Assembly: GCA_011939005.1 (NCBI GenBank)
Contig: GCA_011939005.1_4858.1
From: a phage
Length of the DNA: 64,000 bases
Reading direction: 5' to 3' (one strand)
Shown here: piece after piece, positions 5,944 to 59,890 of the stretch
Layout of the letters: the number at the start of each line of letters is the position of its first letter
How positions within the stretch are numbered: position 1 is the first letter of the stretch
Position numbers and translations under genes: made by a program
Notes under the pieces: model-generated
Database searches by the model: none
Told to the model about the DNA's origin: nothing
The model's input: the letters and a program-made list of their open reading frames with translations, nothing else

Positions 5944-5959
5944 TAGGTAATATATATCT
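5944..5959. promoter_or_regulatory. conserved near-palindromic promoter-like motif (variant AGGTAATATATATCT)
   Basis: Member of recurrent AGATAATATCTATCT family, upstream of minus-strand gene start at 5896. Confidence 0.4.
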
Positions 5960-5980
5960 GAAATCTTTTCTAATCCGAGA

Positions 5981-6020
5981 CAAAAAAAGAAAGGGTAAAT
6001 CCCCCACCGAAGTGGGGGAT
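5981..6020 (-). terminator. intrinsic terminator with UUCG loop on minus strand
   Basis: CCCCCAC-cgaa-GTGGGGG hairpin with A7 on plus strand, downstream of 6033..7292. Confidence 0.5.
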
Positions 6021-6032
6021 TCGCCAGTCTAA

Positions 6033-7292
6033 TTACTTAGACTTTTCGTACGCACCGATACCAGCGCTGATGTAGCCGTTAACGCCGGCGATCAGGTTTT
6101 TCTGGCCGGTTGCAACGCAACGTTCGGTCCAGGAGATGTACTGGTTCGCAACGGTGATTGCACGACGTGCAACACGGACGTTGGAAGTCAGTTCTGCGTT
6201 GTCGTCGATCTTCACGCCGTCGATACGTTTCAGCAGTTTCTCAATAGCCTGCTCGTAACGCTCTTGAGCCTGGTTATTTTTGTGGTATGCTTTCACGTTC
6301 TCTTCGACTGCTTTACCCAGCTGGTTGAAGAACGCAACCAGGGAAGACAGAGTCTGAGCAGACGGAGTAGAAACAGACTGCTCTACGCTACCTTCGGCGT
6401 CGATAACAGTGAAGGAAGCTTCCAGGTCATCCCCATTCACTTTCACTTCGGCTTTACCGATCTGGTTGCCCAGCAGCTGAACTTCGCCCGCTTTACCTGC
6501 GGTTGCTTTGTTAACCGCTGCTGCAAAGCCAGAGCCCAGTTTGCCGCCTTCAACTGCGCCAACCATAGCGGTAGCGGCTGCAACAACTGCATCCTGCTCA
6601 GCGTAAATGCTGCCGATAGAAGACATAACGCCTTTCAGGGTGTTGATGTCGTCACCGACGAACTTACCACCGGTGGTCAGGTTCTTAATGAACCCACCGC
6701 TAACGGTGTCTTTCTTCTGCTTGCCCAGGCCACGCAGAGCAGCGTCATATTTCTTAGCACGCGCCTGAATGGATTTACCCTGGTTGCTGAACTTCAGCCA
6801 ACGGTCTTTAACCTTACGGCCTTGTTCTTTCAGCCAGTCGTAGATGCGCTGCAGGAACGCTTTGATGTCGTCCCACAGGCTTTCACGAGCAACCTGGCGG
6901 CGCTTACGTGCACCGTAAGATTCCTGCGCGACGCTTACGCGGTGGTCGAATGCCCAACGTTTACGGATAGATTCCTGCGCAACGTCCAGCTGCTCAGCAG
7001 CTTCGTCAGGCATATCTTCTTCCACTTCCATTGGCTCTTCGCCATCTTCACCTTCACCGTCAGCGGCAGCTTCAGCAGCATCGACTGCTTCCAGCTGCGC
7101 GTCGGTTTCGTCGCCGTCTTCTGCCAGCACATCTGCTTCAGCATCCAGCTGGTCGATCGGTTTGGTGTCGTGCTCGATGTCAGCCAGAGTACCTTCTACG
7201 GACTCAGCCGGCAGCTCGATACCGTCCGGAACGACAGTACCTGTACCTTCGACAGATTCACGCGCGAGTTTACTTTTTACAAAGTTTGCCAT
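6033..7292 (-). CDS. acidic paralog A of tandem pair (possible virion or internal protein)
   Basis: N-terminus MANFVKSKLARESVE and C-terminus GYISAGIGAYEKSK shared with 7370..8647; Asp/Glu-rich middle. Confidence 0.6.
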   Translation of the reverse strand: MANFVKSKLARESVEGTGTVVPDGIELPAESVEGTLADIEHDTKPIDQLDAEADVLAEDGDETDAQLEAVDAAEAAADGEGEDGEEPMEVEEDMPDEAAEQLDVAQESIRKRWAFDHRVSVAQESYGARKRRQVARESLWDDIKAFLQRIYDWLKEQGRKVKDRWLKFSNQGKSIQARAKKYDAALRGLGKQKKDTVSGGFIKNLTTGGKFVGDDINTLKGVMSSIGSIYAEQDAVVAAATAMVGAVEGGKLGSGFAAAVNKATAGKAGEVQLLGNQIGKAEVKVNGDDLEASFTVIDAEGSVEQSVSTPSAQTLSSLVAFFNQLGKAVEENVKAYHKNNQAQERYEQAIEKLLKRIDGVKIDDNAELTSNVRVARRAITVANQYISWTERCVATGQKNLIAGVNGYISAGIGAYEKSK

Positions 7293-7369
7293 CTTTTTCT
7301 ATCCTCTAGGCGGTACGCCGTGTACCGCCATTAATGATTTGTCAACCGACGTTTGGTACGTAAAGCGGA

Positions 7370-8647
7370 TTAAGCTTTAGACTTTTCGTACGCGCCGATA
7401 CCAGCACCGATGTAGCCGTTCAGACCGCTGATAACAGTGTTACCAACATGCGCCACGGCACGGTTCAGAGTCTGGTAGTTACGCACAGCCTGGTCGGCTG
7501 CAGTACGTGCATTACGCAGTGCTTCCCACTCGCCTTCGTCGTTGGATTTATCCAGGGCAGCAGCAGCTTTGGCAGCAGCCTGCTCCAGTTTCTCAACTTC
7601 GGCGTCATAGGAGCGGAAGTCCTGCAGCACTTTCTCGAAACCTTTACCGATCGCATCAAGAGCGGTTGCTGCAGACGCCAGTGCGGTAATTGCCGGGGTA
7701 GCAATCTCTTTCGTGTCGGTAGAGTCGCCAGTTGACAGGAACGCCACCGCAGTGTACTCCTGGCCGCCGGCCAGAGTTTTGCTACCGATCTGCACATAGG
7801 CGTTGCCTGGCAGTGCCAGAACTTTCTGACCGCCTTCGCCATCTTCGAACTGCGGCAGGGTGCGCAGTTTCTTAGCAGCGGTACCGAACAGGGCAACATC
7901 AACAGCGCCTTTAGCAGCCGTTGCAGTACCTTCTGCAGTTTTGGTGATCGCTACGGCAGAGTCAGCCGCCTGAGAGGACAGCTTGTTGATAGCGTCTTTC
8001 GCTTTACCGCCGGTCAGCTCTTTCGCGATAGCGATGGAGTTGGCCACATCGAAGTCGCCTTCGATAGACAGTTTGCTAATAAAGCCGCCAGAGATGTTTT
8101 CTTTCTTCTGCTTACCGAGCTTACGCAGCATCTCTTGGTAAGCTTTCGCACGTTTCTGTGCAGACTTACCAACGTTGATGTATTTCAGTTTCAGCTCTTT
8201 CGCTTTCGCGATAACTGCTTTACACAGTTCAACGAAGCGCTTGAACAGATCTTTCAGGGTTTCTTTCCAGCCTTCCTGAGCTGCTTTGGTCATGCCACGG
8301 CCACGGCGATAAGATTCGCGCGCCAGTTTGGTACGATCGATAGCCCAACGCTTACGGATAGATTCCTGCGCCACTTCGGTGTGAGCGATGGCTTCTTCAG
8401 GCATCTCTTCACCGTTTTCGATTTTTTCGTCAGCAGCGTCGATAGCAGCTTCGGTACGCTCGGTATCAGCAGCCAGAGTTTCCTGGTCACCATCGAGCTG
8501 TTCCAGCTGACCGTCAATAGACGCAACTTCTGCCAGCTGAACGTCGATGTTCTCTTCTGCCGGTTCAACGTTGCTCAGACCGTCGATTACGTCGCCGGTA
8601 GCTTCAACGGACTCGCGGGCGAGTTTACTTTTTACAAAGTTTGCCAT
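7370..8647 (-). CDS. acidic paralog B of tandem pair
   Basis: Same N- and C-terminal blocks as 6033..7292 with a divergent central region. Confidence 0.6.
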   Translation of the reverse strand: MANFVKSKLARESVEATGDVIDGLSNVEPAEENIDVQLAEVASIDGQLEQLDGDQETLAADTERTEAAIDAADEKIENGEEMPEEAIAHTEVAQESIRKRWAIDRTKLARESYRRGRGMTKAAQEGWKETLKDLFKRFVELCKAVIAKAKELKLKYINVGKSAQKRAKAYQEMLRKLGKQKKENISGGFISKLSIEGDFDVANSIAIAKELTGGKAKDAINKLSSQAADSAVAITKTAEGTATAAKGAVDVALFGTAAKKLRTLPQFEDGEGGQKVLALPGNAYVQIGSKTLAGGQEYTAVAFLSTGDSTDTKEIATPAITALASAATALDAIGKGFEKVLQDFRSYDAEVEKLEQAAAKAAAALDKSNDEGEWEALRNARTAADQAVRNYQTLNRAVAHVGNTVISGLNGYIGAGIGAYEKSKA

Positions 8648-58779: not shown

Positions 58780-58814
58780 GGTAACTTCCTCCTATAAGAT
58801 TCTGAGGCAGTCGT

Positions 58815-58850
58815 GAAAAAAGAAAAAAAAGAGGGAACCGAAGTTCCCTC
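58815..58850 (-). terminator. intrinsic terminator, UUCG loop on minus strand
   Basis: A-rich run then GAGGGAAC-cgaa-GTTCCCTC on plus strand. Confidence 0.65.
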
Positions 58851-58861
58851 AAAAGCATCGA

Positions 58862-59812
58862 CTACCAACCAAACCGAATTTCATACGCACGGAGCCATTG
58901 CTCATGCGGGAATAAATTATAGACCTCTTCGGGAACGTGTAACATCAACCACCTCACGCCAATACTGCTCGCGTACCACGAAGCGTATGGATAGATTGAA
59001 TCCTTCGGTGGTGCTAACGGTGATGGTAACTGTTGAACATCGGTGACAGGGTTACCGATAATTTCACCGCCGGGTAGTACAGCCGCTAGCATCCAGGTCG
59101 TTGGGTAGTAACTACCGCTATCTGTTTTAGCCAGATAACGTAAGTCTAAGTTATTCGGCTCAAACCGCTTGCGTAGAGTTAAGAACAGGCACAACTCATA
59201 CGGTTCGATGTTCAATCTGGTGTTCGGGAGACTGTGCCCTTTATACCAGTTTGCGTAACCTGCCTGCAGTGCTCTGATTGCCAGGATTGGTTTGTCTATA
59301 TCCACAGGTAGCTGGAGTGGTGTAACGTTCAAATCTGCGACTGTTGGAAACATTACCGGTACAGGATTGATGAGCTGGTTATACGCTTCCCGTAAACGAT
59401 TCATCTTGATGCGCAATGCACCGTTCGTTAACATCAGTCTACGTCCATGGTTTTCATCTGTAGCCCGTTCCGTAAAGAGTGCATCGCCGAAATGGCGAAC
59501 AAACTCAATGCTTAGGAACTTGGTGTGGTACGTAGGTGAGGTATACTCAATGAACTCGTTCTGTTGGAATCCGAAGTGGTGGAGCAATTCGCCGTTGCCC
59601 CATTTGAAAACAAATCGGAATTCGAAGTTCTTGTACTGTAGTGCATCTTTTACAGCACGTATCGCTTCCCAAGCGTCGAAATTCGTTCTGTATAACGAAC
59701 CGAAAGGGAAGAATCTGCGAGGTAAGAAAGGTCGAATGCGGGTTGCTTCTGCGAGGCTGAAGCCATCCTGGTTTAATCCTTCAATAGCACTAGGATTACT
59801 TGGTCTGTACAT
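58862..59812 (-). CDS. hypothetical protein (316 aa)
   Basis: ORF; promoter-like motif 59-78 nt upstream. Confidence 0.5.
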   Translation of the reverse strand: MYRPSNPSAIEGLNQDGFSLAEATRIRPFLPRRFFPFGSLYRTNFDAWEAIRAVKDALQYKNFEFRFVFKWGNGELLHHFGFQQNEFIEYTSPTYHTKFLSIEFVRHFGDALFTERATDENHGRRLMLTNGALRIKMNRLREAYNQLINPVPVMFPTVADLNVTPLQLPVDIDKPILAIRALQAGYANWYKGHSLPNTRLNIEPYELCLFLTLRKRFEPNNLDLRYLAKTDSGSYYPTTWMLAAVLPGGEIIGNPVTDVQQLPSPLAPPKDSIYPYASWYASSIGVRWLMLHVPEEVYNLFPHEQWLRAYEIRFGW

Positions 59813-59870
59813 GATGCTTACCTTTTATAGTAGAGTTGGGGAAATTCAGATGAGGCTTTCTCATCTCACT

Positions 59871-59890
59871 TAGGTAATATCTATCTGTGA
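59871..59890. promoter_or_regulatory. conserved promoter-like motif TTAGGTAATATCTATCTGTG
   Basis: Upstream of minus-strand start at 59812. Confidence 0.45.

Follow-up and report, generated by a model that had tools for sequence, protein, structure and literature searches.

A recurrent motif as the probable core of virion RNA polymerase early promoters in an SPN3US-like jumbo phage

Genes and motif copies in the window

The DNA considered here (hereafter the window) is a phage stretch of 64,000 nucleotides (nt) from NCBI GenBank assembly GCA_011939005.1, contig GCA_011939005.1_4858.1, in which a short, partly palindromic motif recurs upstream of gene starts. The window is ~99% identical to SPN3US-type Salmonella jumbo phages (Seoulvirus, related to phiKZ), lies in reverse orientation relative to the SPN3US record, and carries nearly all of its genes on the minus strand. 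SPN3US itself, a relative of phiKZ, forms a phage nucleus and has two multisubunit RNA polymerases (RNAPs), one of which is packaged in the virion (gp42, gp218, gp240, gp241, and gp244) and the other made post-infection (PMC5105663, PMC13282480). Homologues of the phiKZ non-virion subunits gp55, gp68, gp71-73, and gp74 are encoded in the window, together with an orthologue of gp42, the virion-RNAP beta' protein. Here, we describe the motif and argue that it probably forms the core of early promoters read by the virion RNAP.

An initial annotation of the window, made from the letters alone, had reported eight copies of the motif. All eight are real, although the positions given for them were 1–5 nt off: the 15-mers start at 5945, 33270, 37013, 38429, 47940, 48033, 56908, and 59872 and, as had been claimed, share one orientation (8/8). 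In a scan of the window with a position-weight matrix built from these eight sites, they score 35–42 bits, compared with 9.6 bits for the next independent match and at most 19.7 in shuffled sequence. The exact plus-strand 15-mer AGATAATATCTATCT is present three times (33270, 37013, and 38429) against 0.00 expected. With up to three mismatches allowed there are nine plus-strand matches against 1.1 expected, a number reached in none of 100 shuffles, so that the motif is commoner than base composition predicts. One three-mismatch match, at 40705, is not a family member by the position-weight scan.

Because nearly all genes here are on the minus strand, we read the motif as the reverse complement of the plus-strand spelling used initially, namely as minus-strand AGATAGATATTATCT-N4-G with leftward transcription. 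Taking the G that closes this element as the start, we measured a predicted leader to the next minus-strand ATG. The predicted promoters and the genes behind them, named after their SPN3US counterparts, are as follows.

5940..5971, minus strand: predicted early promoter, gp55 orthologue (open reading frame [ORF] 5135-5896); 15-mer 5945-5959; G 5940; leader 44 nt
28897..33239, minus strand: non-virion RNAP genes gp34 (31002-33239) and gp35 (28897-31002), homologues of phiKZ gp71-73 and gp74
33265..33296, minus strand: predicted early promoter, non-virion RNAP genes gp34 and gp35; 15-mer 33270-33284; G 33265; leader 26 nt
36760..38394, minus strand: gp30 orthologue with phiKZ gp68 homology, downstream gene of the 38429 promoter
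37008..37039, minus strand: predicted intragenic early promoter in the gp30 orthologue; 15-mer 37013-37027; G 37008; start 261 nt ahead of the ATG of the gp31 orthologue (35047-36747)
38424..38455, minus strand: predicted early promoter before the gp30 orthologue; 15-mer 38429-38443; G 38424; leader 30 nt
46040..47893, minus strand: chimallin homologue, SPN3US gp22 (= RefSeq gp244), downstream gene of a tandem pair of copies
47935..47966, minus strand: predicted proximal early promoter, chimallin gene; 15-mer 47940-47954; G 47935; leader 42 nt
48028..48059, minus strand: predicted distal early promoter, chimallin gene; 15-mer 48033-48047; G 48028; leader 135 nt
56903..56934, minus strand: predicted early promoter, gp9 orthologue (56557-56877), the first gene of a gp9-gp20 run; 15-mer 56908-56922; G 56903; leader 26 nt
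59867..59898, minus strand: predicted early promoter, gp5 orthologue (58862-59812); 15-mer 59872-59886 (AGATAGATATTACCT); G 59867; leader 55 nt

The copies had been placed mostly 25–80 nt upstream of minus-strand starts, which is borne out at six of the eight, where the gap between 15-mer and ATG is 30–59 nt, but not at 48033 (139 nt), a second, distal copy ahead of the gene that 47940 also precedes, or at 37013 (265 nt), which lies inside an ORF. The corresponding predicted leaders are 26–55 nt at the six sites, each of which has a Shine-Dalgarno sequence before its ATG, 135 nt at 48033, and 261 nt at 37013.

The further statement that every divergent intergenic region contains the motif does not hold: three of the five examined do, and the motif is absent from 11347-11368 and 19175-19244, two regions that flank virion structural genes. 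The association with divergent regions is incidental, in that minus-strand early units happen to adjoin a few plus-strand genes. A bidirectional promoter that also serves the divergent plus-strand genes was considered, since the reverse reading likewise shows core-N4-G, and was rejected because that reading reaches only 15–20 bits, within the shuffled range (maximum 19.7). Moreover, four of the eight sites face no plus-strand gene, and Erwinia phages Asesino and Machina have lost the palindrome in the gp33/gp34 region.

Promoter anatomy and published early promoters

Aligned on the minus strand, the eight copies read aaa..TTTC-AGATAGATATTATCT-NNNN-G-A, and the extended consensus, c.Aa.aaaTTTC-AGATAGATATTATCT-N4-G-A, is asymmetric. 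The whole element spans ~32 bp and comprises an A/T-rich stretch ending in TTTC near -20, AGATAGATATTAT(C/T) centred near -10, six bases, and an invariant G. This G, five bases past the 15-mer and six past ATTAT, is present at all eight window sites and at all 23 sites found in the complete SPN3US genome (see below), and is followed by A in seven of the eight window copies. By analogy with mapped promoters of related phages, it would be the +1 of transcription.

The hexamer TATTAT, which agrees with TATAAT at five of six positions and stands at a spacing from the G that is typical of sigma-70, raises the question of whether the motif might be a host sigma-70 promoter with TATTAT as its -10 hexamer and the G six bases downstream as its start. 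Several properties of the sites make that explanation extremely improbable. They are without a -35 element, the best TTGACA match at 16–18 bp spacing averaging 2.39 of 6 positions at the sites and 2.44 at random, and the extended -10 ‘TG’ (TGn) occurs in only 1 of the 23 SPN3US sites. A sigma-70 consensus scan picks out no motif site and gives 25 matches overall against 24.6 expected. In addition, at least seven conserved bases upstream of the hexamer, together with the TTTC block, are not sigma-70 traits, and the homologous promoters of phiKZ and AR9 do not need host RNAP, infection being rifampicin-resistant (PMC7598289).

Among the closest known counterparts are the predicted early promoters of Klebsiella phage N1M2 and Pseudomonas phage OBP. 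For N1M2, the consensus is TBYAWWWWWTTTCARRYAKATATTATYWAAGTGWA (PMC7058600, Table 2), and the same paper gives in its text consensuses for N1M2 and OBP (TTTC/Y-ARRYAKATATTATYW-AAGTGWA), for 201phi2-1, and for phiKZ (TATATTAC); the OBP and N1M2 promoters are themselves bioinformatic predictions only (PMC7058600). Allowing up to three mismatches, seven of the eight sites match the OBP/N1M2 IUPAC pattern TTTY-ARRYAKATATTATYW-..GTG on the minus strand, against 0.05 expected, and TTTC-AGATAGATATTATCT-..GTGA matches TTTC-ARRYAKATATTATYW-AAGTGWA position by position. TTTC-AGATAGATATTATCT likewise conforms to the consensus of the class as a whole (TTTY-ARRYAKATATTATY or TATATTAC, AT-rich near -10 and T-rich near -20). 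N1M2 has 31 copies per genome compared with 23 in SPN3US, in both cases before early operons that include an RNAP beta subunit gene. The differences from OBP and N1M2 lie in the host, in the phage genus, and in a sub-class present here in which phiKZ-like ...TATATTAC(C/T)T replaces ...GATATTATCT.

The early promoters of phiKZ itself, which its virion RNAP reads, have been mapped by RNA sequencing, 5' rapid amplification of cDNA ends (5'RACE), and differential RNA sequencing (dRNA-seq) (PMC8244752; reportedly also Ceyssens 2014). By dRNA-seq, the phiKZ early motif is present at 32 start sites, one of them at PHIKZ054, and combines an extended -10 box with a T-rich element located upstream of -19 (PMC8244752). 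When phiKZ is scanned with the SPN3US matrix, aaaTTTgAGATnTATATTACTA appears at predicted sites upstream of gp54 (chimallin), gp58.1, and gp68, with predicted starts near 45582, 51729, and 57998. The architecture, aaaTTTgAGATnTATATTACTA...TG, is homologous; the positions before chimallin (phiKZ gp54, SPN3US gp22) and before the gp68-type gene (phiKZ gp68, SPN3US gp30) are syntenic; and the copy numbers are 28–32 in phiKZ and 23 in SPN3US. In contrast, the phiKZ core ends in TAC-TA and that of most copies here in TAT-CT, the intragenic promoter found here within the gp68 homologue is missing from phiKZ, and of the two starts at phiKZ gp54 one is early and the other middle, whereas both chimallin copies here are of the early type.

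In Bacillus phage AR9, dRNA-seq and primer extension define early promoters of the form AAATATATATTAT-(6N)-G+1, which are chloramphenicol-independent (PMC5312081). A single mismatch is enough to abolish an AR9 promoter. Eleven of the 13 core bases are identical to those here, the six-base spacing to the invariant G is the same (AGATAGATATTAT-(6N)-G here), and the AR9 promoters (41 copies, 23 in SPN3US) are likewise found where early genes adjoin late virion genes of the opposite orientation. AR9 is nevertheless a distant relative with a uracil-containing genome and no phage nucleus, and its promoters do not have the TTTC-AGAT block in this form. In phiKZ and phiR1-37, too, transcription starts 6 nt downstream of the conserved element.

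Weighing this evidence together with the gene content and conservation described below, we put the probability that the motif is the core of the virion-RNAP early promoters of an SPN3US-like jumbo phage at roughly 0.88. Assigning +1 to the G, calling the sites early, and naming the virion RNAP as their reader all draw on homology with phiKZ, AR9, and phiR1-37, so that the early timing of transcription from these sites and the identity of the enzyme are probable rather than observed. On this interpretation, the virion-packaged multisubunit polymerase (gp42, gp218, gp240, gp241, and gp244) would enter the cell together with the DNA, recognise the motif elements, and initiate leftward transcription at the invariant G; the first transcripts would then encode chimallin, every non-virion RNAP subunit, the gp68-like specificity subunit among them, and arrays of small proteins of unknown function.

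The promoter class is already known. The motif is its Seoulvirus form, the consensus being essentially the one published for OBP and N1M2, and according to a review every jumbo phage that encodes RNAPs has such a motif that bioinformatic means can locate (PMC7598289). Searching the literature for the motif spelled out as text gave no relevant match. The source that this review names for per-phage motif prediction is reportedly Lavysh 2016 (Virology).

An injected polymerase that reads early promoters is also a feature of coliphage N4, and the motif here contains a short inverted repeat. The N4 enzyme is a single-subunit polymerase, and its promoter is a stable DNA hairpin with a 5–7 bp stem and a 3-nt loop. 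The polymerase here, unlike that of N4, is multisubunit, and an N4-type hairpin promoter was rejected because the minimum free energies of the single strands are -1.0 to -2.0 kcal/mol (z-scores -0.63 to +0.16), no better than those of shuffled sequences.

Gene content, conservation, and motif classes

The genome-wide motif search that the initial annotation had proposed as a check was carried out on the complete annotated SPN3US genome, concatenated and scanned for the motif. It returned 23 co-oriented sites, all on the coding strand of the next gene (23/23) and all but one between annotated genes (22/23); reverse-strand matches are only palindromic shadows of the same 23 sites. Predicted leaders are 26–135 nt, except for 233 nt at the distal gp76 site and 261 nt at the intragenic site before gp31. 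The genes immediately behind the sites are gp5, gp9, gp22 (two sites), gp30, gp31, gp34, gp55, gp66, gp76 (two sites), gp99, gp101, gp112, gp125, gp135, gp175, gp180, gp198 (weak), gp209, gp221, gp249, and gp263. None of the 23 sites is directly followed by a gene annotated as virion structural, and none lies directly upstream of the virion-RNAP genes gp42, gp218, gp240, gp241, or gp244.

The gene first behind the tandem pair, gp22, is the homologue of chimallin, the nuclear shell protein (PMC9365700). This identity rests also on synteny with phiKZ gp54; a PDB sequence search and a Pfam scan gave no match for the homologue. Next in the same unit is gp23, the N-terminal part of non-virion RNAP beta' and a homologue of phiKZ gp55 (8e-33). 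Further, gp30 is homologous to phiKZ gp68 (1.3e-6), the promoter-specificity subunit of the non-virion polymerase (PMC13282480), gp34 to phiKZ gp71-73 (1.8e-29), and gp35 to phiKZ gp74 (8.9e-39), and in SPN3US the non-virion RNAP beta N-terminal subunit gene, gp77, comes after gp76, which has two sites. Each of the five genes for non-virion RNAP subunits thus stands first or second behind a motif copy. This is the gene content expected if the injected virion polymerase reads the sites to produce the second polymerase, which is the established scheme in phiKZ and AR9 (PMC7598289).

The same gene content bears on whether the motif might instead be a middle or late promoter of the second, non-virion RNAP, or be used by both phage polymerases. 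The motif is clearly a phage-specific promoter-like element whose polymerase we infer, and in phiKZ the chimallin gene PHIKZ054 is served by an early as well as a middle start site (PMC8244752), which could find a parallel in the two copies before chimallin here. Both of these copies are of the early type, however, and the known non-virion motifs are different: the phiKZ late promoter is T(-3)ATG(+1), the phiKZ middle motif is weak and AT-rich (TACT near -22 to -24), and AR9 late promoters are AACA-(6N)-TA/G (PMC5312081). In addition, the five genes for non-virion RNAP subunits lie behind the motif, and the first expression of these genes cannot use it if their own products are needed; the lack of any site directly ahead of an annotated virion structural gene points the same way. 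We therefore regard a non-virion-RNAP promoter as very unlikely.

Three points do weigh against early promoters read by the virion RNAP. The literature searched yielded no data on start sites, timing, or polymerase dependence in SPN3US or closely related phages. Read-through from the 33270 promoter into the virion-RNAP gene gp42, which lies 10 kb farther downstream on the same strand, is possible. Finally, phage 201phi2-1 has non-virion RNAP genes without a proximal early promoter (PMC11512511), and the argument from gene content is accordingly not a universal rule.

Conservation was examined over a syntenic stretch of ~40-41 kb in Salmonella phage STsAS, Erwinia phages Asesino and Machina, and Salmonella phage pSal-SNUABM-04, which are 64–80% identical to the window at the nucleotide level and together cover three genera including Seoulvirus, that of the window. 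All five window sites within this stretch, among them the chimallin tandem pair and the intragenic copy, recur at orthologous positions and in the same orientation in all four relatives, and their orientation relative to the downstream gene is uniform (20/20 sites).

The intragenic 15-mer encodes D-R-Y-Y, and its codons GAT AGA TAT TAT are invariant across the phages compared at the codon level (Asesino, Machina, and pSal-SNUABM-04). Its arginine is encoded by AGA, whereas neighbouring arginine residues use CGN. Because the four codons are invariant while 7 of 11 conserved residues flanking D-R-Y-Y vary synonymously, the comparison, although the numbers are small, suggests that selection acts on the DNA itself at this copy.

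The initial annotation had described the motif core as an imperfect palindrome and had offered two explanations, a phage-RNAP promoter and a binding site for a dimeric regulator. In fact, AGATA-A-TATCT is a perfect 5-1-5 palindrome in five of the eight window copies, and the other three break the symmetry. An operator AGATA-N-TATCT for a dimeric phage regulator, instead of or besides a promoter role (e.g. for early shut-off), would account for this perfect inverted repeat in the consensus, intact in 5/8 window and 10/23 SPN3US copies, and for the symmetric double changes AGATG-T-CATCT at SPN3US 161919 and TGATA-T-TATCA in Asesino and Machina. Yet the palindrome is broken in 13 of the 23 SPN3US sites, including six near-identical, high-scoring sites (class II, defined below) that match at three of five positions. 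Conservation is asymmetric, with TTTC-AGAT on one side and N4-G-A on the other, and the orientation relative to the downstream gene is always the same (23/23 in SPN3US, 20/20 in the relatives), which a symmetric operator would not require. In the gp33/gp34 region, Asesino and Machina lose the palindrome and keep the promoter core, and phiKZ and AR9 early promoters have the core in common with these sites but not the symmetry. Of the two explanations, the phage-RNAP promoter is thus well supported, whereas the dimeric regulator site, given the asymmetric flanks and uniform orientation, is unsupported as the main function and in our judgement highly improbable, although the few symmetric double changes make a secondary operator role conceivable.

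The sites that we interpret as virion-RNAP early promoters fall into two classes. Class I, AGATAGATATTATCT, precedes conserved core genes, namely those that encode chimallin and the subunits of the non-virion RNAP, as well as the orthologues of gp30 and gp31. Class II is nearly invariant over ~30 nt, TTTC-AGATATATATTAC(C/T)T-AGGTGAGAGTTA, contains the palindrome ACCTAGGT, has as its core the phiKZ form TATATTAC, and precedes arrays of small genes of unknown function (SPN3US gp55, gp66, gp101, gp135, gp180, and gp249, and the array at 5945 in the window). The class II sites are as follows.

SPN3US: 56294, 65413, 94239, 113986, 165687, 223277
Window: 5945, a class II variant, AGATATATATTACCT-AGGT-G

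Window site 59872 is a hybrid of the two classes, and the 5-1-5 palindrome is kept mainly in class I. Conceivably, the family encodes a finer programme than ‘early’, with classes that differ in strength or timing, a class I palindrome that acts as a shut-off operator, and an intragenic promoter that uncouples gp31 and gp32; we consider this rather unlikely. If it were true, the classes could separate immediate-early host take-over from delayed-early expression, and the promoter inside the gp68-like gene could uncouple the expression of gp31 and gp32 from that of the specificity subunit.

Neighbouring elements and significance

Upstream of two of the window promoters, 5945 and 59872, by 40–60 nt, are terminator-like hairpins of the UUCG-loop type (5998-6021 and 59922-59945), each with a perfect 10-bp GC-rich stem and a CTTCGG loop followed by a T-run in minus-strand transcripts. 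Such a hairpin is found within 130 nt upstream of 5 of the 23 SPN3US promoter sites and at 5% of random positions. Judged by these features, the arrangement of hairpin and promoter appears to mark a terminator-then-promoter boundary.

Two conserved blocks adjoin the chimallin promoters. Between the proximal and the distal copy, at ~47975-47995 on the minus strand, the leader of the distal transcript contains the block (G/A)TAAGC-GACG-GCTTAC, which could fold into a hairpin with a 6-bp stem and the loop GACG; within this block, GCGACGGC is invariant, and changes in the stem are wobble-compatible across five phages. On the plus strand, at ~48072-48082, the 11-nt TATG-containing block TTCCTATGTGG is invariant in five aligned phages and lies ~20 nt before the gp21 orthologue (start ~48100), a plus-strand gene divergent from chimallin and syntenic with the phiKZ head protein gene gp52. 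Because TATG is the phiKZ late-promoter core, this block may be a late promoter for the non-virion RNAP; TATG upstream of non-early genes was found in 4 of 15 cases against ~2.6 expected, which is not significant.

The gp23 orthologue (phiKZ gp55 homologue), second in the chimallin unit, is interrupted by a 1404-nt insertion at 43186-44589 on the minus strand that is absent from SPN3US and leaves exons at 44590-45957 and 42958-43185. The insertion carries an ORF for a homing endonuclease with HNH and NUMOD1 domains (43532-44530) and a full-length match to the group I intron family RF00028 at 43234-43562, which scores 47 bits (gathering score 50; E = 1.9e-10). The last base of the 5' exon is U and that of the insert is G, and removal of the insert restores M-A-N-G|D-F-D-G-D, on which basis a putative group I intron interrupts the catalytic Mg-binding motif of the non-virion RNAP beta' gene. 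An analogous split is known in phiKZ, namely gp55 / gp56 (HNH) / gp56.1.

Other departures from SPN3US are a 656-bp insertion at 49264-49919, which makes up most of a minus-strand ORF of 223 aa (49250-49921) without a Pfam match, and, at window positions 3219-3231, the absence of ~630 bp of SPN3US (59022-59650, the gp59/gp60 region). Two minus-strand tRNA genes, at 61313-61382 and 62740-62812, match Rfam RF00005 with 37.7 and 63 bits and correspond to tRNA-OTHER and tRNA-Trp of SPN3US.

Two discrete motif sub-classes, a conserved intragenic copy in the gp68-like gene, and a conserved tandem pair before chimallin may be new. As predicted early promoters of the virion RNAP, the sites would provide an operon map for the first minutes of infection by an SPN3US-type nucleus-forming phage, with 8 predicted starts in the window and 23 in SPN3US, and would place chimallin and all non-virion RNAP subunits right behind predicted early promoters. 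Such a map could be used in annotation, for early-expression cassettes in engineered jumbo phages, and as a substrate set for the biochemistry of the poorly characterised virion RNAP. The element is not of a new kind; rather, a consensus that is nearly the same in phages of Salmonella, Erwinia, Klebsiella, and Pseudomonas, and that resembles the one in AR9, underlines how deeply conserved promoter recognition by virion polymerases would be.

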